A DNA stretch of 64,000 bases, from positions 8,433-72,432 of the forward strand of contig WFXF01000002.1 of NCBI GenBank assembly GCA_015490755.1, given 5' to 3'. The DNA is from Gammaproteobacteria bacterium. Its GTDB lineage: Bacteria > Pseudomonadota > Gammaproteobacteria > JAADGQ01. The position numbers and the translations under genes are program-made. Shown one piece after another: positions 4,047-51,342 of the stretch (within the stretch, counting starts at the first letter, position 1; each line of letters starts with the position of its first letter). Below the pieces are notes generated by a model. That model was not told the origin of the DNA. It was given only the letters and a program-made list of their open reading frames with translations, and ran no database searches.

Positions 4047-5051
4047 ATGAAAATGAAAAAAACAGTTTTAATACTTTTAGTTGTCTCGGCAATCGTGGGT
4101 TCGTCATTACAAGCTGCATCTTTGGAGCAGAGGGATGATGTCAAGGCTTTCATTCAATCTATGGTGGAAAAACATGGCTTTGAATCCACTGAATTGCTTC
4201 AATTGTTTAAACAAGTGGAGCTGCGTGAAGATATTATCGAGTTAATGACCCGACCTGCTGAAGGGAAACCCTGGCATGAATATCGACCCATTTTTGTGAC
4301 TAAAAAACGAATTCAGGGCGGGGTTAAGTTTTGGAATGAAAATAGAGAGATTTTGTTGCGGGCAGAAAAAGAGTATGGTGTGCCGCCCGAAATTATTACT
4401 GCCATTATTGGTGTTGAGACACGTTATGGAGGCTATATTGGCAAGCATCGGGTGATTGATGCATTGACTACGCTCGGTTTTGATTATCCAAAGCGGGCTA
4501 AGTTTTTTAGCAGTGAACTTGAACACTTTCTATTATTGATGCGTGATGAATCCAAAGATCCTTTGATTCCAGTTGGCTCTTATGCCGGGGCAATGGGAAT
4601 ACCTCAATTTATTCCAAGTAGCTATCGTCATTATGCGGTTGATTTTGATGGCGATGGTAAGCGTGATTTGTGGGAAAACCGGGCCGATGTGATTGGCAGT
4701 GTTGCAAGTTATTTTCAACGGCACGGTTGGCAAGCCGGGCAGCCTGTCGTGAGCCAGGTGAAGGTTGAAGGTGATGGTTATATTGCATTGCTGAAAGCGG
4801 GAATTAAACCAAAACATAATTTGAAACACTTTAGGGAGAATGGTGTGATCATCAGTGATAAGTTTTCTGATGAACTGCCTGCTGCACTGCTAAAGTATGA
4901 AACGAAGTCAGAGCCGGAGTATTGGATAGGTCTGCAAAATTTTTATACGATTACACGATATAATCACAGTAAGCGTTACGCTATGGCTGTGTATCAGTTA
5001 GCAATGGCGATTCGCGATGCTCATAAAAATCAAAAACAAGTCAGCAGATAA
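4047..5051 (+). CDS. mltB: lytic murein transglycosylase B
   Basis: Signal peptide, and MltB/Slt35-family conserved stretches (e.g. ...ETRYGGYIGKH...). Confidence 0.85.
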   Translation: MKMKKTVLILLVVSAIVGSSLQAASLEQRDDVKAFIQSMVEKHGFESTELLQLFKQVELREDIIELMTRPAEGKPWHEYRPIFVTKKRIQGGVKFWNENREILLRAEKEYGVPPEIITAIIGVETRYGGYIGKHRVIDALTTLGFDYPKRAKFFSSELEHFLLLMRDESKDPLIPVGSYAGAMGIPQFIPSSYRHYAVDFDGDGKRDLWENRADVIGSVASYFQRHGWQAGQPVVSQVKVEGDGYIALLKAGIKPKHNLKHFRENGVIISDKFSDELPAALLKYETKSEPEYWIGLQNFYTITRYNHSKRYAMAVYQLAMAIRDAHKNQKQVSR

Positions 5052-5052
5052 A

Positions 5053-5853
5053 ATGAAAGATATTGTTGAAATATTTCATCGAAGCCGTGTGTTATGGATA
5101 GGGAGTGTGTTGTTTTTAAGCGCATGCAGCACAGTTGTGACTCAGCAGGATGGGCCGCCGCCGCATAGTGTTGATGTCAGTTCGATTGGTAATGCAAAAC
5201 CAAAATTTGAAGCACGCAGCAGGTATGGAAACCCTGAATCATACGTTGTTGGCAACCGGCGTTATTACACAATGGAGAGTAGTCAAGGGTATGTGGATGA
5301 AGGGGTTGCTTCATGGTACGGCTCTAAATTTCATGGGCGACGTACGTCGAGTGGGGAGATCTATAATATGTACGGTATGACAGCTGCACACAAGAGCCTG
5401 CCATTACCGACCTATGTGGAGGTGACCAATCTGGATAATGGCCAAAAAATAGTTGTAAAGGTGAATGATCGCGGCCCGTTTGTTGATGGCCGTCTGATTG
5501 ATCTTTCGTATGTAGCCGCAGCCAAATTAGGTATCACGCAGCATGGCACAGGGCGAGTCAAGGTTCGTGCTATTGATGTAAAGCAAGGCGCACCTGCTGT
5601 GACGAAAGCAGAAGCAGTTTCATCGCGTGTCTATTTGCAGGTGGGAGCATTTAGTCAGCAGTATAATGCAGAAAAGCTACAAGACTCACTGACAGAGAAA
5701 CGTTTTGCAAACGTACATATCCATGAATCGAATGGCACTGGTAGTTCGCTTTACCGGGTTCGTATTGGGCCGGTTGATGATGAGGCGCTGCTGAAATTAG
5801 CAGCAAAAGTCAGACCTTACATAGGTCATGAACCTCATGTCGTTGTTGATTGA
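5053..5853 (+). CDS. rlpA: septal ring lytic transglycosylase RlpA family lipoprotein with a C-terminal SPOR domain
   Basis: The ORF opens at 5017, but the likely start is the ATG at 5053, because a lipoprotein signal (…LSAC) follows. It has a DPBB domain (GxASWYG… GxxTxSGE) and a C-terminal SPOR domain. Conserved position between mltB and dacA. Confidence 0.85.
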   Translation: MKDIVEIFHRSRVLWIGSVLFLSACSTVVTQQDGPPPHSVDVSSIGNAKPKFEARSRYGNPESYVVGNRRYYTMESSQGYVDEGVASWYGSKFHGRRTSSGEIYNMYGMTAAHKSLPLPTYVEVTNLDNGQKIVVKVNDRGPFVDGRLIDLSYVAAAKLGITQHGTGRVKVRAIDVKQGAPAVTKAEAVSSRVYLQVGAFSQQYNAEKLQDSLTEKRFANVHIHESNGTGSSLYRVRIGPVDDEALLKLAAKVRPYIGHEPHVVVD

Positions 5854-5897: not shown

Positions 5898-7055
5898 ATG
5901 AAACAAAAAATATCAATTCTTTATGGCTGCACTTTAGTCGTTTTGTTGAGTATTGTCGTCTGTAATAGTGCCTTTGCGATACCCAAAATAATTCCACAGC
6001 CCCCCAGTGTTGCTGCACGTGGCTATATTGTTCAGGATTTTAATAGTGGTTATGTGATTGCGGAAAAAAATGCAGATACACGACTGGAGCCTGCAAGCCT
6101 GACCAAATTAATGACTGCTCTGGTTGTTTTTGAAAAGCTACGTGAAGGTGAAATTGTTTTGGATGAGCCTGTGATGATCAGTGAAAAAGCATGGCGTATG
6201 CAAGGCTCAAGAATGTTTGTTGAGGTAAATAAACAGGTCTCTATCGAAAAGCTGCTTAAAGGTCTGATTATACAGTCAGGTAATGATGCAAGTGTTGCTT
6301 TGGCGGAGCATGTGGCGGGTAGCGAAGAGGGCTTCGTTACAATGATGAATGGTTACGCCAGTGAATTTGGTATGGAGGGTACCCATTTTATGAATAGTAC
6401 GGGTCTGCCCGATGAGAACCACTATACAACCGCTCGTGATATGGCGAAGTTAACACAGAAGATCATCGAACGCTTTCCTGAATATTATTCATGGTACTCC
6501 ATAAAAGAGTACAGCTATGGCGGTATCAAACAATTCAATCGCAACAAACTGCTGTGGCGCGATAAATCAGTTGATGGCCTTAAAACAGGGCATACAAAAT
6601 CTGCTGGATACTGTCTGATTACATCTGCGAAACGTAATGGTATGCGCTTGATTTCCGTGGTGATTGGTGCAAAAAGTGAAGAAGGTCGTGCGCAAGAGAG
6701 CCAGCGTTTGTTAAATTACAGCTTTCGCTTTTTTGAAACCCGTAAGCTTTACTCAGCTAATGAAGTATTAACTACGACCAAGGTCTGGAAAGGCGAGATA
6801 GAGGAGTTGCAACTCGGTGTAGGTCGTGATTTCTATTTGACGTTTCCACGAGGCCGGTATAAAAATCTGGATGCTTCGATGAGTGTTGATAATCTTGTTT
6901 ATGCTCCTGTGAAGCGCGGTCAAGAACTGGGTTCAGTGAATATTAAACTGAATGACCAAGAGCTGGGTTCACAGCCATTAATTGCATTGAATGGTGTTGA
7001 AGAGGGTGGTTTTTTTCAACGTATGGTTGATGAAGTTTATTTAATGTTTGAGTAA
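5898..7055 (+). CDS. dacA: D-alanyl-D-alanine carboxypeptidase (PBP5/6 family, serine-type)
   Basis: Signal peptide, an SxxK motif (ASLTK), SGN, KTG, and the C-terminal PBP5 domain. Confidence 0.9.
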   Translation: MKQKISILYGCTLVVLLSIVVCNSAFAIPKIIPQPPSVAARGYIVQDFNSGYVIAEKNADTRLEPASLTKLMTALVVFEKLREGEIVLDEPVMISEKAWRMQGSRMFVEVNKQVSIEKLLKGLIIQSGNDASVALAEHVAGSEEGFVTMMNGYASEFGMEGTHFMNSTGLPDENHYTTARDMAKLTQKIIERFPEYYSWYSIKEYSYGGIKQFNRNKLLWRDKSVDGLKTGHTKSAGYCLITSAKRNGMRLISVVIGAKSEEGRAQESQRLLNYSFRFFETRKLYSANEVLTTTKVWKGEIEELQLGVGRDFYLTFPRGRYKNLDASMSVDNLVYAPVKRGQELGSVNIKLNDQELGSQPLIALNGVEEGGFFQRMVDEVYLMFE

Positions 7056-29918: not shown

Positions 29919-30923
29919 TTATTTTACCTGATCCGTTTGCTTGATTTTCTTCAAATATATAATCGATGCTCTTCGGTTCTCATCATCTGGATAGACACGA
30001 CCGGAGGTGAGGCAAGTAAAAATATGTTTGAAAACTTCGCCGGGAGTGCCTTTTTTGGTTCCAGAGCGAAAATAGGAGTGGCCTTTGGGGCGGTCATATG
30101 CACTATTAACATCATCGCAATCAACTCGATATACATTTCTTGGTGTTTTCTCTATATCTTCCGGGCCGGTATGACCTAACCTGCGAGATGCAATTTTATT
30201 TTTAAGGTTTGAAACTTTGCTTGCTCGAAGTGCCAGGTCATCCGATGCGTGATAAACAATAACATTACGTGAAGTATGGCAGATTAATTCTCCAGGCTCA
30301 CCTTTGTGAAGTGTTTCATTGACTACATCAGCAGCGACCATGAAGGTGTTTCTAAAAATCAGGGGCAACCCTTTGGGCAGGTCATATTTGCCCCAGACGG
30401 ATAATGTTTCTCGTAGAACACGGTTCCCCATAGAGTGAGCTAATAAGTTGACTCTTTTCAGGCAGGGTTCATCCTGAGGGTTATATTTTTCAGAATTACG
30501 CCATGCTATGAATTTTTCTAATACTCTTGCAAAAGAGAAGGCACTTTGGTCAGCAGCTTTTTGATCATCCCAATAATCCTTGATAATTCCTAAATCGTTG
30601 TCGCATGGCCAAACGATGGGGATGACTAGAATTTCACCCTTTTTAGTTTTTTCACAAAGGTTTTGAAATTCATTAACGGCAGAAAACACATCTTCAGGAA
30701 GGTTGGAAAACCCATGGATGTATATAAGAATCTGGCGACATTCCGACCCTTTTAGCCGACTTAAAAACTCAATACTGCCAATCTCTTTGTACTCTTTTTC
30801 AGATAAACGTTCACAGAAAAATACTGAATTGCTTGCTGCATTATTATTTAGGTCAAAATCAAAATTTCGTCCAACCCGGGTTCGAATGCTCTGTTTTGGG
30901 AATCGGTTTGTAATAAAAATCAT
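29919..30923 (-). CDS. alpha/beta-hydrolase fold protein (putative esterase/lipase, DUF900-like). It is an orphan and AT-rich.
   Basis: 334 aa with the nucleophile elbow AHSMG (GxSxG-type), IYIHGF upstream, and candidate Asp/His downstream. It sits where nadD would normally precede rsfS. Confidence 0.7.
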   Translation of the reverse strand: MIFITNRFPKQSIRTRVGRNFDFDLNNNAASNSVFFCERLSEKEYKEIGSIEFLSRLKGSECRQILIYIHGFSNLPEDVFSAVNEFQNLCEKTKKGEILVIPIVWPCDNDLGIIKDYWDDQKAADQSAFSFARVLEKFIAWRNSEKYNPQDEPCLKRVNLLAHSMGNRVLRETLSVWGKYDLPKGLPLIFRNTFMVAADVVNETLHKGEPGELICHTSRNVIVYHASDDLALRASKVSNLKNKIASRRLGHTGPEDIEKTPRNVYRVDCDDVNSAYDRPKGHSYFRSGTKKGTPGEVFKHIFTCLTSGRVYPDDENRRASIIYLKKIKQTDQVK

Positions 30924-30953
30924 TTTAATTTCTCTCCTTATAAAAATTAAGCT
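30824..30953. repeat. copy 1 of a 130-bp direct duplication (the first 33 codons of the hydrolase gene plus 30 bp upstream)
   Basis: Near-identical, with a single 1-nt indel, to 32124-32253. Confidence 0.9.
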
Positions 30954-31020
30954 CTGAACTTTGAACCGAAGTAAAAGAGCAAGTCAGAGTGTAGAAGTTA
31001 TTTCGTGAACGTTCCTAAGT

Positions 31021-31110
31021 GCCGTGTTAAGTGGTTTTGCTTTTCACTATAAGGATATCAGTTTGAAAAACGGTTTTGGTGACCCTAATAATCTGCATAT
31101 GTTTCTTTGA
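31021..31110 (+). pseudogene. fragment paralogous to the C-terminal part of the 185-aa membrane protein at 32905-33462
   Basis: About 80% nucleotide identity to 33247-33336. It translates to AVLSGFAFHYKDISLKNGFGDPNNLHMFL*, against AVLSGFAFHYEDINLAGGFGDPDNLHMLLG in the intact gene. Confidence 0.4.
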
Positions 31111-31120
31111 GTTTTGGATG

Positions 31121-31148
31121 TTGATTGTAATAAATCTAATGTTATAAT
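31121..31148 (+). promoter_or_regulatory. candidate sigma-70 promoter of the TA operon
   Basis: TTGATT, then a 16-nt spacer, then TATAAT, ending 38 nt upstream of the antitoxin ATG. An AAGAGG RBS lies at 31175-31180. Confidence 0.4.
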
Positions 31149-31186
31149 GTGTATCTAATGTATGCACAGAAAAAAGAGGTTATCTT

Positions 31187-31450
31187 ATGAGCAAAACCGC
31201 ATCTATCAATATGCGTGTTGAGCCTAGCCAGCACGAACTTTTAACAAAGGCATCAAGAATTCTACATAAAGATAGAAGTGCCTTTATTTTAGATATTGCC
31301 TGTCGAGAAGCAAAAAATGTACTGCTGGATCAACGTTTGTTTTTATTAGAAAGTGAGGCTTTTGAAAAGTTTGAGCAGGCTTTAAATACTCCACTGGCTG
31401 AAAACAGTAGACTAGAGCAACTTATGGCTGAGCCGTCACCGTGGGATTAA
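31187..31450 (+). CDS. DUF1778-family antitoxin of the TacA/AtaR/KacA type (RHH fold)
   Basis: 87 aa. INMRVEPSQHELLTKAS…SAFILD…A…VL… matches the DUF1778 consensus. It overlaps the toxin gene by 10 bp. Confidence 0.88.
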   Translation: MSKTASINMRVEPSQHELLTKASRILHKDRSAFILDIACREAKNVLLDQRLFLLESEAFEKFEQALNTPLAENSRLEQLMAEPSPWD

Positions 31451-31938
31451 TAAAAAAACCTGAATTACTTGATAGCAAACATAATGTTTTAGGCTTTAAC
31501 TGTGGTAATGAAACCTTAAATGATTGGTTAAAAAAGAAGGCTTTAAAAAATCAAAGGCAGGGAGCAAGTAAAGCCTTTGTTATTTGTGATGACATACAGG
31601 TTGTTGGTTACTACGCTTTGGCAACAGGCAGTGTGGAAAGAATAAATGCACCCAAGTCTTTAGCACGAAATATGCCGAACCCTATACCTGTTATTGTTCT
31701 TGGCAGGTTGGCGATTGACCAGCAGTTTCATGGTAAAAAACTTGGTTCAGCACTACTTAAAGATGCCATAAAACGTACTATTTATATATCTGAAAATGTA
31801 GGTGTAAAGGCTTTACTGGTGCATGCAATTTCAGAAGAAGCTAAAAGATTTTACCTTCACCACAATTTTATTGAATCACCTATAGAATCAATGACGTTAT
31901 TATTATCAATGAATAATAAGAAAAGACTTATAATCTAG
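31441..31938 (+). CDS. GNAT-family toxin (aminoacyl-tRNA-acetylating, TacT/AtaT/KacT-like)
   Basis: 165 aa with an acetyl-CoA binding segment (…QQFHGKKLGSALLKDAIKR…) and the conserved pairing with an upstream DUF1778 antitoxin. Confidence 0.86.
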   Translation: MGLIKKPELLDSKHNVLGFNCGNETLNDWLKKKALKNQRQGASKAFVICDDIQVVGYYALATGSVERINAPKSLARNMPNPIPVIVLGRLAIDQQFHGKKLGSALLKDAIKRTIYISENVGVKALLVHAISEEAKRFYLHHNFIESPIESMTLLLSMNNKKRLII

Positions 31939-32100
31939 GAGCCTGTCCGAGAATGAAAAGTCTACTGCGGAAAATCCATTTCGGCCATATTTGGTGTAAA
32001 TTTTCGTTAAATAGAACAACTATTCGCCTCAAATTTACACCAAATCTGCCATCAAAATGGCTTTCCCTCGCTACGACTTCCATTCTCGGACAGGCTCCTA
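31938..32100. repeat. 163-bp palindromic MITE-like element with 17-bp terminal inverted repeats (GAGCCTGTCCGAGAATG … CATTCTCGGACAGGCTC)
   Basis: Left and right TIRs, and internal inverted segments (ATTTGGTGTAAATTT / AAATTTACACCAAAT), are directly visible. It starts at the toxin stop codon. A second partial copy lies at 51147-51254. Confidence 0.7.
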
Positions 32101-32123
32101 GTCATGGTACTTTACCAATGAAC

Positions 32124-32253
32124 TGAATTGCTTTGCCGCATTATTATTTAGGTCAAAATCAAAATTGCGTCCAACTCGGGTTCGAATGCTCTGTTTTGGG
32201 AATCGGTTTGTAATAAAAATCATTTTAATTTCTCTCCTTATAAAAATTAAGCT
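32124..32253. repeat. copy 2 of the 130-bp direct duplication. It carries a truncated hydrolase start (46-codon relic ORF on the minus strand).
   Basis: Matches 30824-30953. Confidence 0.9.
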
Positions 32254-32307: not shown

Positions 32308-32892
32308 ATGGTTATGAGTGAAAGTAGCACAAAACAAATTAAAGTATGGGATGGCCTTGTGCGCGGTTTTCACTGGCTGATGCTGCTCTCTTTTGTGGGC
32401 GCTTATATTACTAGCCAGTCAGGAATGCAGCAAACTCATATTTTGATTGGCTACTTCATCTGTTTATTACTGATTATTCGTACTGTGTGGGGCTTTATCG
32501 GAAGCAAACATGCGCGCTTCTCTGATTTTGTTGCTTTACCTTCACATGTATGGGCTTATCTGCAAGCCAGCTTTAGAAACAGTCCCCCTCATTATTTTGG
32601 TCATAATCCAGCTGGTGGCTGGATGGTGTTGGCTTTGATGGGGGCGCTTTTGTTGATGTCTGTGAGTGGAGTGATTCTTGTCTCTGTAATCGAATTTGAA
32701 GGGCCACTACTGAATTTATTGTCTGGTATGAGTGATCAGTGGGCCTATCGCTATGAAGAGCTGCATGAAGTGGCACTTAACATCTTGTGGTTGTTGATCG
32801 CAGGGCATTTAGTGGGTGTGGTCGTTGCATCAATTCAACATAAAGAAAATCTGCTACGTGCCATGGTCAGTGGGTATAAAATTATAAAATAG
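32308..32892 (+). CDS. cytochrome b561 family protein (CybB/YceJ-like, PF01292)
   Basis: 194 aa with four TM helices and conserved His (…FHWLMLL…, …GHLVGVV…) in the Ni/Fe-hydrogenase b-type cytochrome fold. Confidence 0.85.
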   Translation: MVMSESSTKQIKVWDGLVRGFHWLMLLSFVGAYITSQSGMQQTHILIGYFICLLLIIRTVWGFIGSKHARFSDFVALPSHVWAYLQASFRNSPPHYFGHNPAGGWMVLALMGALLLMSVSGVILVSVIEFEGPLLNLLSGMSDQWAYRYEELHEVALNILWLLIAGHLVGVVVASIQHKENLLRAMVSGYKIIK

Positions 32893-32904: not shown

Positions 32905-33462
32905 ATGATGAAAAAGTATTTAGCGATCTGCTGCATATTATTTAGCTGGAATTGCTCTGCTCAAGCTCAGGAATACATGCCAGAACACTTTTTGGATTTG
33001 TCTGTTAAGCCGCAACCGTATACATCCTATATTCAATTAGCCCAGCTTGATACGGCAAATTTAAATGCTACCCATGAAGGCCATAATGAAGAGAAGAAAC
33101 CCCTGTTTAAATCCAGGCCTGTGACTTTGAATAAAGTGCATAAATATCTTGGTTACGCTTCAATGGTAAGTGCTGTATTGACAGGGTTGTCACCCAAAAC
33201 AGCCGGGGGTCCTCATGAGCTTTTTGGTACAGCCGCAGCCGCTTTTGGTGCGGCAGCTGTGTTAAGCGGTTTTGCTTTTCATTATGAAGATATCAATTTG
33301 GCGGGTGGTTTTGGCGACCCGGATAACTTGCATATGCTTCTTGGCATTTTAGGAACCGCAGGTTATGCCGTTGCTGTGAGTAGTGGTGAAGATGGTGGGC
33401 ATGGTGGTCCTGGTACTCTTGGTGCGCTCAGCATGGCTATGGCTATTAAATTAACCTGGTAG
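32905..33462 (+). CDS. hypothetical protein: signal peptide, a roughly 70-aa periplasmic segment, then Gly/Ala-rich TM helices flanked by His residues
   Basis: 185 aa with no recognisable family. Tightly coupled (a 12-bp gap) between the b561 gene and the c-type cytochromes. Confidence 0.6.
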   Translation: MMKKYLAICCILFSWNCSAQAQEYMPEHFLDLSVKPQPYTSYIQLAQLDTANLNATHEGHNEEKKPLFKSRPVTLNKVHKYLGYASMVSAVLTGLSPKTAGGPHELFGTAAAAFGAAAVLSGFAFHYEDINLAGGFGDPDNLHMLLGILGTAGYAVAVSSGEDGGHGGPGTLGALSMAMAIKLTW

Positions 33463-33472
33463 GAGCTTAAGA

Positions 33473-33865
33473 ATGAATAAAATATTAATTTTTGTGGTTG
33501 CAATACTCTTCTCATCAATTGCATTGGCGACAACCCCCATTGATCAACGTATGGCTGATTATAACCCTGATGGTAATCTGATATTTGATGCTAAACGTGG
33601 TGAAGATTTATGGAATCAGAAGCGTATGGTTGATGGCAAACAGCGTGATTGTAACGCTTGCCACGGTAAAGATCTCACACAGCCGGGTGAGCATGTAAAA
33701 AGTGGCAAAGTGATTAAGCCTATGGCCTATTCAGTCAATAAGGAGCGTTTCACTAAACTGAAAAAGGTCAAAAAGTGGTTCAAACGTAATTGTAAATGGA
33801 CTTATGGACGCGAGTGCACCACTCAAGAGAAAGGTGATTTGCTTAAATACTTATCTCAATTTTAA
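33473..33865 (+). CDS. monoheme c-type cytochrome (single CxxCH; SHP/DUF1924-like)
   Basis: A signal peptide and one CNACH haem-binding motif; 130 aa. Confidence 0.75.
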   Translation: MNKILIFVVAILFSSIALATTPIDQRMADYNPDGNLIFDAKRGEDLWNQKRMVDGKQRDCNACHGKDLTQPGEHVKSGKVIKPMAYSVNKERFTKLKKVKKWFKRNCKWTYGRECTTQEKGDLLKYLSQF

Positions 33866-33881
33866 ACAGGGCTGAAATATT

Positions 33882-34448
33882 ATGACTAAAAGACTAACAA
33901 TATTATCTATAGTGACTCTCTTGGGGCTGGGAATCAATACGTCGGTCTTTGCAGATGGTGAAAGTTTTTTTGATTGGTTGTTGACTACGGATTCGCGTAA
34001 CGAAATCAAACCCATGCAGAATGAGTTATATAATGAGGAGTGCAGCGACTGTCACTTTCCTTATCAGGCGGGCCTATTACCGGAAGCCTCTTGGAAAAAG
34101 CTGCTTGACCCTAAAGCACTGGAAGACCATTTTGGTGATAATGCTGAATTAGATGATGAAACAAGGAGTGCAATATTGGATGCTTTGATTGCGGATTCGG
34201 CCGATAAATCACGATATAAGCGTTCCAAAAAAATTATGTCATCACTGGGCGAAAATGAAGTGCCCATGCGTATTATTGATATTCCTTATATTAAGCGTAA
34301 GCATCATGAAATTTCTGATAAACTCATCACTGGAAATGACAAGGTGAAATCATTAAGTTTTTGCGATGCATGTCATCAAAAAGCAGATGAGGGAATCTAT
34401 GATGATGACAGCGTGGTAATTCCTGGGCATGGTAACTGGACGTGGTAA
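33882..34448 (+). CDS. diheme cytochrome c (DHC family)
   Basis: A signal peptide and two CxxCH motifs (CSDCHF and CDACHQ) about 105 aa apart, as in DHC. Confidence 0.8.
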   Translation: MTKRLTILSIVTLLGLGINTSVFADGESFFDWLLTTDSRNEIKPMQNELYNEECSDCHFPYQAGLLPEASWKKLLDPKALEDHFGDNAELDDETRSAILDALIADSADKSRYKRSKKIMSSLGENEVPMRIIDIPYIKRKHHEISDKLITGNDKVKSLSFCDACHQKADEGIYDDDSVVIPGHGNWTW

Positions 34449-34468: not shown

Positions 34469-35131
34469 ATGCGTATACTTCTGGTTGAAGACGATCCGCA
34501 GTTGGGCGATGGCATTCGTACCGGTCTGCAACAGGTCAGTTATGCTGTAGATTGGTTACGTGATGGCTTGGGCGCTTTGCATAGTCTGGAAGTCGAAAAC
34601 TTTGATATGGTGATACTCGATCTGGGTTTGCCACGTATGGATGGTCTCAGTGTACTGGAGAAAATTCGTGCTTCCGGCAACGATGTACCCATATTGATTT
34701 TAACAGCGAGAGACACTGTTGCAGATCGTGTCAAAGGGCTTGACAGCGGTGCCGATGATTATTTGGCAAAACCATTTGATCTGGATGAGTTGTGCGCTCG
34801 AATAAGGGCATTGAGTCGTCGTCACAGTGGCCGGGCATCCTCATTAATCAAGTACCGTGATATCGTTTTGGATCCAATGGCTCACAGCCTCAATAAAAAC
34901 GGTGAAGAGATAAATCTATCAACCCGAGAATTTAAAATTCTACAAATTCTGTTTGAAAATATCGGTCGTGTCTTGTCCAGAGAGCGCATTGAAGAAAGCT
35001 TGTTCGGCTGGGATGATTCACTTGAAAGTAATGCCACCGAAGTTCATATTCATCATCTGCGCAAAAAATTGGGCAAAGATCTTATTGTGACTATTCGCGG
35101 TGTTGGTTACATGATCGCTAAAGAGAGTTGA
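34469..35131 (+). CDS. OmpR/PhoB-family DNA-binding response regulator
   Basis: A receiver domain (DD…D…K) plus a winged-helix trans_reg_C domain. Confidence 0.93.
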   Translation: MRILLVEDDPQLGDGIRTGLQQVSYAVDWLRDGLGALHSLEVENFDMVILDLGLPRMDGLSVLEKIRASGNDVPILILTARDTVADRVKGLDSGADDYLAKPFDLDELCARIRALSRRHSGRASSLIKYRDIVLDPMAHSLNKNGEEINLSTREFKILQILFENIGRVLSRERIEESLFGWDDSLESNATEVHIHHLRKKLGKDLIVTIRGVGYMIAKES

Positions 35132-36483
35132 TGAAACCCCGTTCAATCCGTCAAAACTTATTATTATTGGTATTGGGGGCAGTATTCATCTCTTGGGCAG
35201 TAGTTGCTCTGTTTGTCTATAAAAGTGCTAAACATGAAACTGAAGAGGTTTATGATGCACATCTGGTTCAAAGTGCCAAGTTGTTAGCCTCATTAATCAG
35301 GTATGAGCAGGAAAAGAGTCATCAGCTACAGGTTGAGATGGATGACTTTCTACCCATAGCACATAAATACGAATCTAAAATATCTTTTATTGTTTATTAT
35401 GGTGATGGAAAGGTAATGGTTCGTTCAGCATCGGCTCCAATACTGCCGGAGATTGAATCTTTCAATAATTTCAAACAGATCGAAGTTGATGGCGTCATTT
35501 GGTATACCTATAACCTTCGTGACCCCAAGACAAACTTACTTATTCAAACCGCTCAACGTTATGATGTCCGCCAGGAACTGATTAACTATATTAGTAGTAG
35601 CGTATTAGGTGTAATGCTGCTTTCTCTGCCGTTTATCGCAATTTTGATCTGGATTACTATTGGTCGAGGCCTGCGCCCATTGGTTCTGCTGGCAGATTCT
35701 ATATCGGGCCGATCAGTACAGCAGTTGGAGCCGATTACACTCGAAAGAGTGCCTACTGAAGCACAGCCTATTGTTTATGCTTTGAACTCTCTTTTTAATC
35801 GCTTGTCGCAAGCTTTTGAAAAAGAGCGACGCTTTACTGCGGATGCGGCTCATGAGTTGCGTACACCATTGTCAGGTATAAAAACCCAGGCACAGGTGGC
35901 TCTGCGATCAACAGAAAACAAGCAGCGACAGCAAGCGATAGTGCAAGTGATTACGGGCGTTGAACGTACAACCAAGCTGGTCAATCAGCTGTTAATTCTT
36001 GCCAGAGTTGATGCTGAGCAACATATCGTTAAAACTGAGCTGAACCTGAAACAGCTATGCGCGACCGTGATTAGCGAACAGATTGTTTCAGCTCTGAGTA
36101 AAAATATAGATATCAGTCTGGAAGGTGAGTCACTTGTAACCATAAATGGTAATGAAGAGTTGATACATATTTTGATTGCGAATGTAATCAATAATGCAAT
36201 ACGTTATACGCCCAGCGAAGGGCGTATTATTGTCAGTGTAACAAGTGATGCGCAGGGTATAGTGTTTGAGGTGAAAGATTCCGGTTTTGGTATATCTAAA
36301 TCATTGCAGACAGAAGTTTTTAATCGTTTTAAACGTGGTGAGCATTCAGATATTTCTGGTAGCGGATTGGGGTTATCAATAGTGTTGCGAATCTCCGAGC
36401 TACACCGTGCAAGAATTCAGCTGGGTGAAGGTTTGGATAATGCAGGGCTTAGTGTCAAAATCACTTTTGAACAAACTGCGTAA
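35128..36483 (+). CDS. sensor histidine kinase (two TM, HAMP, HisKA, HATPase_c)
   Basis: H-box AHELRTPL and G1/G2 boxes (GSGLGLSIV). Overlaps the regulator gene by 4 bp. Confidence 0.92.
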   Translation: MMKPRSIRQNLLLLVLGAVFISWAVVALFVYKSAKHETEEVYDAHLVQSAKLLASLIRYEQEKSHQLQVEMDDFLPIAHKYESKISFIVYYGDGKVMVRSASAPILPEIESFNNFKQIEVDGVIWYTYNLRDPKTNLLIQTAQRYDVRQELINYISSSVLGVMLLSLPFIAILIWITIGRGLRPLVLLADSISGRSVQQLEPITLERVPTEAQPIVYALNSLFNRLSQAFEKERRFTADAAHELRTPLSGIKTQAQVALRSTENKQRQQAIVQVITGVERTTKLVNQLLILARVDAEQHIVKTELNLKQLCATVISEQIVSALSKNIDISLEGESLVTINGNEELIHILIANVINNAIRYTPSEGRIIVSVTSDAQGIVFEVKDSGFGISKSLQTEVFNRFKRGEHSDISGSGLGLSIVLRISELHRARIQLGEGLDNAGLSVKITFEQTA

Positions 36484-51146: not shown

Positions 51147-51254
51147 TTTTTCGGTATTTTGAGGCGAATAGTTGTTCTATTTAACGAAAATTTACACCAA
51201 ATCTGCCTCAAAATGGCTTTCCCTCGCTACGACTTCCATTCTCGGACAGCCTCC
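51147..51254. repeat. second, partial copy of the MITE-like element (right half and TIR)
   Basis: …TTTACACCAAATCTGCC[T]CAAAATGGCTTTCCCTCGCTACGACTTCCATTCTCGGACAG[C]CTCC is almost identical to 32048-32100. The centre is inverted relative to copy 1. Confidence 0.65.
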
Positions 51255-51342
51255 TGGCGGGCGAAGCTCGGCAGGCAGTGTAAACGTCATCATAATCATA
51301 AAATAATCGGCAGGGACCTGTTTCTGAGACCGCCGCTCAACT

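Follow-up and report, generated by a model that had tools for sequence, protein, structure and literature searches.

The closest described relatives of the locus analysed here are the sphaeroides-haem-protein (SHP) operons and the irc cluster of iron-oxidising bacteria. In Rhodobacter, SHP is reduced by the dihaem cytochrome c DHC, and the function of the module formed by SHP, DHC and a cytochrome b has been an open question since the discovery of SHP. The SHP operons described by Meyer et al. in 2010 comprise three to six genes, among them those for a cytochrome b (sometimes fused to a membrane DHC), SHP and a soluble DHC, usually alongside a response regulator and sensor kinase (PMC2909971). 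Sideroxydans and other Gallionellaceae carry the irc cluster (ircABCD), at present put forward as a marker for active microbial iron oxidation. The cluster encodes the cytochrome b IrcD, the DUF1924 protein IrcB, the DHC IrcA and IrcC, which is still listed as hypothetical. In the literature, the IrcC family appears as the hypothetical protein Slit_1322/IrcC of an Fe(II)-responsive cluster (PMC8788666, PMC10734462, PMC12442390), predicted to be located in the inner membrane (PMC12442390). Slit_1322 has been seen in the proteome and is induced by Fe(II) along with its cytochrome neighbours (PMC11429942, PMC8788666), and Fe(II) induction of the irc cluster is known for Sideroxydans ES-1 and CL21 only (PMC8788666, PMC12442390).

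The window, the whole stretch of 64,000 nucleotides of gammaproteobacterial DNA that was analysed, contains an SHP operon in the order cytochrome b, gene X, DUF1924/SHP, DHC, response regulator and kinase:

32308..32892, forward strand: cytochrome b561 (Ni_hydr_CYTB), first gene of the operon (PF01292, E 2.3e-24)
32905..33462, forward strand: gene X (IrcC/Slit_1322-like), an open reading frame of 185 aa plus stop codon with homologues and no Pfam or NCBIfam family
33473..33865, forward strand: DUF1924, SHP-like monohaem cytochrome c (PF09086, E 1.7e-37)
33882..34448, forward strand: dihaem cytochrome c, DHC (PF09626, E 2.7e-32)
34469..36483, forward strand: OmpR-type response regulator (34469-35131; PF00072/PF00486) and sensor kinase (35128-36483; HisKA/HATPase_c)

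The cytochrome b, the SHP-like DUF1924 protein, DHC and the adjacent two-component regulator all match the published SHP operon, whereas the published descriptions lack an X-type gene, which lies in the window between the cytochrome b and SHP genes (PMC2909971). The 'Orf1' of published SHP operons differs from X in being a sensor accessory in the periplasm that goes with another class of kinase (PMC2909971). In the irc cluster, IrcC occupies the same slot as X, between cytochrome b (IrcD) and DUF1924 (IrcB)/DHC (IrcA), and like X has no annotated domain. On sequence comparison, X belongs to the uncharacterised family known as IrcC/Slit_1322 in iron-oxidising bacteria. A tblastn search with a profile of X relatives retrieves proteins of Gallionella, Sideroxydans and Sideroxyarcus at E 1e-10 to 1e-21, and six loci (L053, L073-77) have the published gene order, cyt b-X-DUF1924-DHC(-Hsp33). 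The published order of Slit_1321-1325 matches the Gallionellaceae arrangement cyt b-X-DUF1924-DHC-Hsp33 (PMC8788666, PMC10734462), and the link to Slit_1322 is one of homology to Gallionellaceae proteins in the Slit_1322 position, not to the ES-1 sequence itself. The Gallionellaceae branch shares only 30-45% identity with the X of the window and carries a loop insert with a conserved G-C-x3-C pair in loop 1, which the X of the window lacks. The latter belongs to a gammaproteobacterial, Crenotrichaceae-like SHP operon that brings a response regulator and a kinase of its own, whereas the irc version adjoins Hsp33.

The X family is not tiny, with 252 representatives at 50% identity, and the co-occurrence with DHC and b561 that the original prediction raised is seen across genomes. 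DHC lies downstream of X in all 62 species-level loci, while SHP is present in 53 of them and a cytochrome b in 42, so the tightest partner of X is DHC, not cytochrome b561. Where a locus has two DHC genes, the one adjacent to X is the closer to the DHC of the window in 13 of 13 cases (44-59% versus 27-42%). Cytochrome b is absent from 8 of the 39 X loci having at least 4 kb on both sides, and the X-DHC pair stands alone at three loci; X and DHC can therefore be the whole local module. The proposed translational coupling of X to cytochrome b561 survives as close operon linkage but not as an overlap, since 12 nt separate the cytochrome b561 stop codon (32890-32892) from the ATG of X, with a GAGG Shine-Dalgarno sequence between them. 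Orthologous cytochrome b561 and X genes overlap by 1-4 nt.

The open reading frame at 32905-33462 is a real gene. As first described, its product is unclassified, with no match in NCBIfam, none in Pfam (the sole sub-cutoff hit being PF12912 at E 0.075) and no record in an exact-sequence lookup. A DoxX/NnrS-type match, named beforehand as a ground for abandoning the reading of X, does not appear for X or for any of 104 family members, with hits as weak as E 1 counted, and the reading therefore stands on this point. The c-type haem-attachment motif CXXCH occurs in 0 of 287 family proteins, and no fusion ("Rosetta stone") partner was found among the same 287. The parts of the protein, with helices taken from the AlphaFold model and alignment, are as follows:

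32905..32967, forward strand: residues 1-21, putative Sec-type signal peptide (cleaved between MMKKYLAICCILFSWNCSAQA and QE), judged from sequence; homologues keep the n, h and c regions and the A-x-A end
32968..33102, forward strand: residues 22-66, variable disordered linker (pLDDT <50; poor conservation, many indels)
33127..33189, forward strand: helix 1, residues 75-95, motif N-K-x-H79-K-Y-L-G83, H79 codon at 33139-33141
33211..33291, forward strand: helix 2, residues 103-129, H104 codon at 33214-33216
33292..33318, forward strand: acidic loop 2 with a short helix (I-N-L-A-G-G-F-G-D), then a D-P-D-N cap, from charge and alignment
33319..33381, forward strand: helix 3, residues 139-159, motif D-P-D-N-L-H143-M-L-L-G, H143 codon at 33331-33333
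33403..33456, forward strand: helix 4, residues 167-184, preceded by G-G-H166, H166 codon at 33400-33402

Both N-terminal elements of the original prediction, a signal peptide and a low-complexity periplasmic stretch, are borne out. The N-terminus consists of MMKK, a hydrophobic core of 13 residues and AQA before QE, a makeup typical of a Sec signal peptide; its A/V-x-A end is kept in homologues, and residues 2-20 are helical in the AF2 model. The stretch that follows corresponds to a poorly conserved, disordered linker, with pLDDT <50 over residues 21-66. The possibility that X is a lipoprotein was ruled out by the absence of a conserved lipobox Cys.

The AlphaFold check called for at the outset yields a confident four-helix bundle for the X domain (pLDDT 93.7, pTM 0.86), with helices spanning residues 75-95, 103-129, 139-159 and 167-184. 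Of the "three or four" Gly-zipper-like helices first proposed, the Gly/Ala-rich character holds and the lower count does not, since the model shows four. In an alignment of 155 sequences, H79 and H143 are present in all 155 and H104 and H166 in 154, so that four nearly invariant histidines, one at each helix start, are placed where haem or metal ligation is possible, as had been suggested. Each of them lies in the first turn of its own helix and is followed by H-x3-G/A, and within each helix the conserved residues line a single face, spaced i, +4, +7, +11 and +14 from the His. Other nearly invariant positions are G83 (153/155), G122, A157, G173 and M177 (152/155), and D140 and P139 are kept in 144 and 124 sequences, respectively. 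One face of helix 2 forms a small-residue stripe (108, A111, G115, A118, G122), helix 4 holds G170, G173 and M177, and the protein ends in K-L-T-W185. A fifth histidine, H126, is less conserved (139/155, with Tyr instead in 14/155).

The mean content of K+R and D+E over the 155 sequences is 0.00 and 0.00 for helix 1 and 0.01 and 0.12 for helix 4. A soluble periplasmic bundle of the cytochrome b562/SmbP type was rejected because the helices are nearly without charged residues. An outer-membrane beta-barrel, an idea prompted by the C-terminal K-L-T-W, was ruled out by the i+3/i+4 periodicity and by the AF2 helices (pLDDT 93.7). Every loop of X is net acidic, with loop 2 at -3.45 across the family, and the positive-inside rule therefore yields no topology. 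Comparison of hairpin 1 with hairpin 2 by hhalign gives a probability of 73% (E 3e-5), with H79 paired to H143 and H104 to H166, and the score of 24.4 compares with 8.6 ± 2.5 for column-shuffled controls, none of which (0/100) reaches 24.4; the domain thus shows signs of a putative internal two-hairpin repeat.

The four invariant histidines suggest a very small two-haem membrane cytochrome b. Their layout resembles that of eukaryotic cytochrome b561 (PF03188; 4o6y, 5zle), whose four-helix core likewise has a haem-ligating His where each of four successive helices begins. There, each haem is held by helices i and i+2, one haem at either face of the membrane. An H-x-x-L-G motif is common to b561 (SLHSWLG, PWHVFLG) and X (HKYLG, HMLLG), the other X motifs being HELFG and HGGPG. 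Eukaryotic b561 differs in having six helices and no signal peptide, as against the signal peptide and four helices of X. The prokaryotic b561/Ni_hydr_CYTB family (PF01292), encoded in the same operon, is also a four-helix membrane protein, and both could carry two transmembrane haems. In that family, as exemplified by FdnI, the haem ligands are spread unevenly, with two on one helix, in contrast to the one His per helix of X.

At the sequence level, no haem family is significantly linked to X. The X of the window has no match, even a weak one, to the haem families in Pfam. Among 104 family members, in keeping with the haem reading, sub-threshold Pfam matches recur to DUF4079 (28), DUF420 (19), Cytochrom_B561 (16) and Ni_hydr_CYTB (12); these families (DUF4079, DUF420, PF03188 and PF01292) presumably form one Pfam dihaem-cytochrome clan. 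No family member reaches the 31.4- and 30.5-bit cutoffs of DUF4079 (PF13301) and DUF420 (PF04238), all matches being at E 0.002 or weaker, and for PF03188, to which the X of the window has no match, the best of the 16 matching members lies at E 0.0015, below the 23-bit cutoff. Ten family proteins run in both directions gave nine such weak matches as forward sequences and one as reversed sequences; one reversed control sequence matched Ni_hydr_CYTB at E 0.054, and weak matches can therefore stem from composition alone. Alignment of X by hhalign with three eukaryotic b561 sequences, including a human one, gave probabilities of 5% and 1%, with local alignments that set the His of X on the ligand His of b561. 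With 45 co-encoded Ni_hydr_CYTB cytochrome b sequences the probability was 0.7%, indicating no relation. A PDB sequence search with two X-family profiles gave chance-level matches only (1kv9, E 0.54; 5hy0, E 0.31), and the papers searched gave no link between DUF4079 and b561. Homology between X and b561 is thus not demonstrable at the level of sequence.

Foldseek with the X model returned generic four-helix bundles, none at E <=1e-3. The best matches were to cytochrome oxidase subunit III (E ~0.1, TM-score 0.63-0.71 on the query, identity 12-16%), whose C-terminal part is also a membrane four-helix bundle in a respiratory complex but is free of cofactors and has no comparable His pattern. This resemblance raises the alternative that X, like oxidase subunit III or b6f subunit IV, is a membrane subunit that binds no cofactor but tethers or orients DHC (and SHP) and stabilises a complex with cytochrome b, its histidines serving structure or contacts with lipid or partners. 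Such a role would agree with the Gly/Ala stripes, which are classic tight-packing motifs of transmembrane helices, with the strict DHC linkage and with the periplasmic face being the best conserved (D-P-D-N, K77/K80, K182 and the terminal W185), as expected for a docking site. It is nevertheless rather unlikely, as four symmetric, 99-100% invariant histidines in an H-x3-G/A setting are hard to explain by packing alone, and X-DHC pairs with no cytochrome b within 4-6 kb would leave DHC without a locally encoded membrane redox partner.

The same residues could instead bind or conduct a metal ion (Fe, Cu or Zn). X would then be linked to the cytochromes as a sensor, ferroxidase-like entry site or small transporter, with sites at H79/H143/H126/D129/D140 at the periplasmic end, at H104/H166 opposite and at M177 in the middle of the bundle. 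The helices, however, offer no polar ligands, acidic ones included, along which a divalent cation could pass, H126 gives way to Tyr in 14 of 155 sequences, and matches to metal-protein folds are generic. Many hosts, including the gammaproteobacterial lineage of the window, are not known iron oxidisers, and their SHP operon is of the usual kind, complete with a two-component system. A metal site is therefore improbable, even though the homologous irc cluster responds to Fe(II) (PMC8788666, PMC12442390), one end gathers three His and conserved Asp, and the core has an invariant Met177; a reversed-sequence control that matched the Ctr copper-transporter family is noise, but indicates a Ctr-like composition. 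More doubtful still is a haem-handling or maturation helper dedicated to DHC, in which, as in CcmF/CcsA, haem would be held for a time by histidines lying at the membrane surface and would not form a stable redox centre. The positions of the His at helix ends near the membrane surface and the constant presence of a co-encoded c-type cytochrome would suit such a helper, but X lacks a WWD motif and does not resemble the Ccm/Ccs families, most published DHC/SHP operons mature without such a gene (PMC2909971), and Slit_1322 expression is comparable to that of structural cytochromes (PMC11429942).

The reading preferred here, put forward tentatively but with a substantial chance of being correct, is that X is a minimal transmembrane bis-His dihaem cytochrome b with a layout like the b561 core, wiring the membrane to periplasmic DHC. 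We infer its membrane topology, haem binding and direction of electron flow along the following lines. X would be the small inner-membrane subunit of an SHP/irc-type electron-transfer module and, after removal of the signal peptide, would consist of a disordered periplasmic linker followed by a four-helix transmembrane bundle. H79 of helix 1 and H143 of helix 3 would lie on diagonal helices at the periplasmic end, H104 of helix 2 and H166 of helix 4 would do so at the opposite end, and each diagonal pair would ligate one haem b in bis-His fashion. Through X, electrons would be exchanged between periplasmic DHC and the membrane side, meaning the quinone pool, the co-encoded cytochrome b561 or both. 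By extension, and slightly more tentatively, the IrcC/Slit_1322 family may represent an unrecognised class of minimal transmembrane cytochrome b, with ~120 residues, four helices, a duplicated hairpin, one His per helix and two haems b, which would be the obligatory membrane partner of DHC in SHP/irc modules and, at the many loci without a conventional cytochrome b, the sole connection of these periplasmic cytochromes to the membrane. A haem-b protein paired with DHC would add a redox centre between the periplasmic cytochromes and the quinone pool, would explain working X-DHC pairs without a conventional cytochrome b, and would be one of the smallest natural dihaem transmembrane wires.

Several structural features sit less easily with haem binding or with the proposed topology. 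The histidines lie at the extreme ends of short apolar helices (13-20 residues), which speaks against haem, and by estimate would thus separate the irons by ~24 Å, towards the upper end of the range for electron transfer. Tight helix packing with no room for haem is another way to read the Gly/Ala stripes. The G-C-x3-C pair of the Gallionellaceae branch looks extracytoplasmic, whereas loop 1 is cytoplasmic in the proposed topology.

Far less important is a fragment (X') upstream of the operon, a scrap of a foreign X gene carried by a toxin-antitoxin cassette. The features of this region are:

30822..30953, unstranded: left copy of a ~131-bp direct repeat, with the 5' end of a DUF900 gene and 30 nt upstream (repeat families D1, D3)
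30954..32120, unstranded: insertion of ~1.17 kb relative to the syntenic locus L001, toxin-antitoxin and MITE-like; same arrangement in L078
31021..31115, forward strand: truncated fragment of a diverged X-type gene, codons 118-149, with D140N and a stop codon, from nucleotide and HMM matches
32121..32253, unstranded: right repeat copy, sharing 98% identity with the left one and running on into the native cytochrome b upstream region

The insertion opens with 67 nt of unknown origin, followed by the X' fragment, a TacA-like antitoxin (31187-31450), a GNAT TacT-like toxin (31441-31938) and an inverted-repeat element (31935-32101), and is absent from its syntenic relative. The fragment, a sharply bounded piece of ~33 codons, aligns with 33256-33350 at 78% over 95 nt without gaps. 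It is truly homologous to X, as originally proposed: chance similarity was ruled out by blastn within the window (E 4.9e-16) and by the match of its translation, AVLSGFAFHYKDISLKNGFGDPNNLHMFL followed by a stop codon, to the X-family HMM (E 4e-14). No further similarity to X, cytochrome b, SHP or DHC was found around it.

The claim that this fragment records a past duplication of X, and possibly of the whole module, is not supported. Its orientation is that of X, 2.2 kb upstream, and on its flanks a stretch from the operon's upstream region is present in duplicate, as might be expected had X or the cyt b-X-SHP-DHC module been duplicated locally in tandem and one copy decayed. Such an origin is nonetheless very unlikely, and the duplication is unsupported because the fragment is only 78% identical to the resident X, as against 98% between the flanking repeats, within an insertion that bears a toxin-antitoxin pair and a repeated, MITE-like inverted-repeat element and is missing in L001; other remnants of the module are also absent. 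What looks like a second copy is no duplicated module but a short scrap of foreign gene within a toxin-antitoxin insertion. The fragment is at least as close to the X genes of other lineages (83.7% to L012, 81.8% to L001), and its codon differences comprise 7 synonymous and 7 non-synonymous changes; since half are synonymous, it diverged under selection, as a working gene elsewhere.

The open reading frame of the original prediction is present and encodes a protein of 185 residues (X), which lies within the following operon.

32308-32892: cytochrome b561 of the Ni_hydr_CYTB type (cyt b), upstream of X
32905-33462 (+): X, 185 residues
33473-33865: DUF1924-type monohaem cytochrome c, like the sphaeroides haem protein (SHP), downstream of X
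33882-34448: dihaem cytochrome c (DHC), downstream of X

The spacer between the cyt b stop codon and X is 12 nt and contains a GAGG ribosome-binding site. X begins with what looks like a Sec signal peptide, and the stretch of residues 21-66 is poorly conserved and disordered in the structure model; searches of Pfam and NCBIfam with X found no family. Together with a regulator, the cyt b, SHP and DHC genes correspond to the SHP operon described by Meyer et al., for which an electron flow from quinol via cyt b and DHC to SHP was proposed (PMC2909971). SHP binds O2 and NO (PMC2909971; also reviewed in bioRxiv 10.64898/2026.01.22.701106).

In searches with an HMM for each of the four genes, built from the collected loci, DHC is found downstream of X, directly or past SHP, in all 62 species loci, whereas cyt b is present in only 42 (SHP in 53); X and DHC thus form an obligatory pair, with cyt b a frequent companion that is not required. 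Besides the window's order cyt b-X-SHP-DHC, the loci show SHP-(DHC)-cyt b-X-DHC, SHP-X-DHC and X-DHC. Cyt b is missing from eight of the 39 loci that have at least 4 kb of sequence on either side, and three of the 39 hold just an X-DHC pair (L014, L043 and L055, with X at about 6000-6400 in each and neither SHP nor cyt b in the surrounding 4-6 kb); the genes surrounding the L014 pair are unrelated (FadL-like, Tim44-like, DsbA-like). In the 13 loci with two DHC genes (L008, L015, L018, L031, L034, L039, L042, L044, L046, L052, L056, L058 and L070), the copy adjacent to X is always the nearer relative of the window's DHC (44-59% identity, compared with 27-42% and shorter matches for the cyt b-adjacent copy), which suggests that the two classes are separate, partner-specific paralogues. 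At L008, a 373-residue product (4133-5254, minus strand) encoded divergently from X-SHP-DHC bears both Ni_hydr_CYTB and DHC domains, matching the 'CytB/mDHC chimera' described for Rhodobacter, and X thus co-exists with the fused form as well.

A word-indexed search recovers only 19 relatives of X, and an exhaustive profile search yields 252 representatives at 50% identity, all of 100-250 residues with a conserved C-terminal domain of about 120 residues. The 62 loci, from a scan of GTDB species genomes, all lie in metagenome-assembled genomes (MAGs) of Gammaproteobacteria, Gallionellaceae (Gallionella, Sideroxydans, Sideroxyarcus), Zetaproteobacteria and Nitrospirae/Nitrospirales, and a gammaproteobacterial Crenotrichaceae MAG carries an X domain 100% identical to that of the window. 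A Sideroxydans member recruits 582 more proteins, none with a Pfam domain and with "hypothetical protein" as every source name shown; neither CXXCH motifs nor fused domains are present among 287 family proteins. A cluster of Sideroxydans lithotrophicus ES-1 that is highly expressed and responds to Fe(II) includes the dihaem cytochrome Slit_1324 and the Hsp33 Slit_1325 (PMC8788666, PMC10734462); it was later named ircABCD, with IrcC a hypothetical protein of predicted inner membrane location (PMC12442390), and Slit_1322 has been seen in proteomes (PMC11429942). As Gallionellaceae-type X homologues occupy the same five-gene order including Hsp33 (L073-L077 and L053), homology and conserved position through these homologues place X in the IrcC/Slit_1322 family. 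X is a new member of a family that is flagged in the literature but uncharacterised; this copy comes from a gammaproteobacterial SHP operon, and the family is widespread in iron oxidisers.

The AlphaFold2 model of the X domain (104-sequence input alignment; pLDDT 93.7, pTM 0.86) is an up-down four-helix bundle with helices at 75-95, 103-129, 139-159 and 167-184; loop 2 contains a further, short helix. Across an alignment of 155 sequences, H79, G83, H104, G122, D140, H143, A157, H166, G173, M177 and the C-terminal W185 are near-invariant and H126 is 90% conserved. Members of the family always end in K-[LIM]-T-W. Each helix carries one invariant His in its first turn, followed at +4 by a small residue (G83, A/G108, G/A147, G170) and by more at +7, +11, +14 and +18, all on one helical face. 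Charged residues are essentially absent from the helices in all 155 sequences, which speaks for a bundle embedded in the membrane rather than a soluble one. Aligned with hhalign, the two hairpins match with 73% probability, pairing H79 with H143 and H104 with H166; the score of 24.4 is reached by none of 100 column-shuffled controls, and the reversed control scores 18.3. The Gallionellaceae branch (e.g., P0242, residues 101-116, and P0177) has a loop 1 insert with a conserved G-C-E-x-N-C...P-P-R, and GCx(2-4)C is present in 90 of the 287 family proteins.

The haem or metal ligation originally suggested for X is plausible and now sharper, with four invariant His residues, one per helix, in a protein paired with DHC. 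Cleavage of the signal peptide would put the start of helix 1 at the periplasmic face, so that H79 on helix 1 and H143 on helix 3, which are diagonal to each other, would lie at the periplasmic end of the bundle, and H104 on helix 2 and H166 on helix 4 at the opposite end. The ligands of eukaryotic cytochrome b561 are laid out in the same way in its four-helix core, and its motifs SLHSWLG and PWHVFLG, read from solved structures, resemble HKYLG and HMLLG of X. This predicted layout and the similar motifs lead to the proposal, tentative and somewhat short of an even chance, that X may bind two bis-His haems b and relay electrons between the membrane side and periplasmic DHC; the prediction is directly testable. 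The support is circumstantial. Sub-threshold Pfam matches recurring in the family (DUF4079, DUF420, Cytochrom_B561, Ni_hydr_CYTB) are nine times as frequent as in reversed controls, local hhalign with b561 superposes the His residues at a score that is not significant, and the fold matches are compatible with two haems yet generic. Against the dihaem reading, no test of X for membership of a known haem family gave a positive result, and the best Foldseek match is COX3, which holds no cofactor. The His residues are also very close to the helix ends, and every loop is acidic. The loop 1 Cys pair of the Gallionellaceae branch, which looks extracytoplasmic, falls in a loop that the proposed dihaem topology places in the cytoplasm. 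As for alternatives, that X is a docking subunit without a cofactor is unlikely, though worth weighing; a metal site is rather improbable, and a haem-handling helper more doubtful still.

The X-like fragment upstream of the operon lies within an insertion between the DUF900 hydrolase gene (29919-30923) and the cyt b operon, with the following features.

30822-30953 and 32121-32253: flanking direct repeats, about 131 bp, 98% identical
30954-32120: insertion, about 1.17 kb
31021-31115: X-like fragment
31187-31938: TacA/TacT-like toxin-antitoxin pair
31935-32101: inverted-repeat element, 167 nt, with 47-nt arms (CTAGGAGCCTGTCCGAGAATG...)
32098-32223 (-): pseudo-ORF of 41 codons, from the duplicated DUF900 5' end
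51158-51255: second, partial copy of the inverted-repeat element

The fragment is homologous to X codons 118-149 (78% identity over 95 nt, ungapped; blastn E 4.9e-16, family HMM E 4e-14), with similarity that ends sharply on both sides, and carries D140N and a stop codon. Compared with the resident X, the X genes from other lineages are somewhat closer to it (83.7% and 81.8%), and synonymous changes make up half of its codon differences; both point to a piece of an X gene that had diverged. A past duplication of X or of the module, as had been read from this fragment, finds no support, since the fragment is nearer to foreign X genes and sits within the toxin-antitoxin insertion; most likely it was brought in with that cassette. 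The flanking repeats, which duplicate the DUF900 gene 5' end and its upstream region, are much longer than target-site duplications usually are, and integration of a circular intermediate through one crossover within these 131 bp of homology is a speculative route of entry. The first 30 residues of the pseudo-ORF are identical to the real DUF900 product. The insert is common to the window and another MAG (L078), and the syntenic relative L001 has no insert and a DUF900-cyt b distance of 92 nt. The inverted-repeat element looks like a MITE, its second copy being about 19 kb away and 97% identical over 69 nt. Related MAG contigs break at or near this element, with L078 ending soon after the toxin-antitoxin pair and L011 starting just upstream of X.
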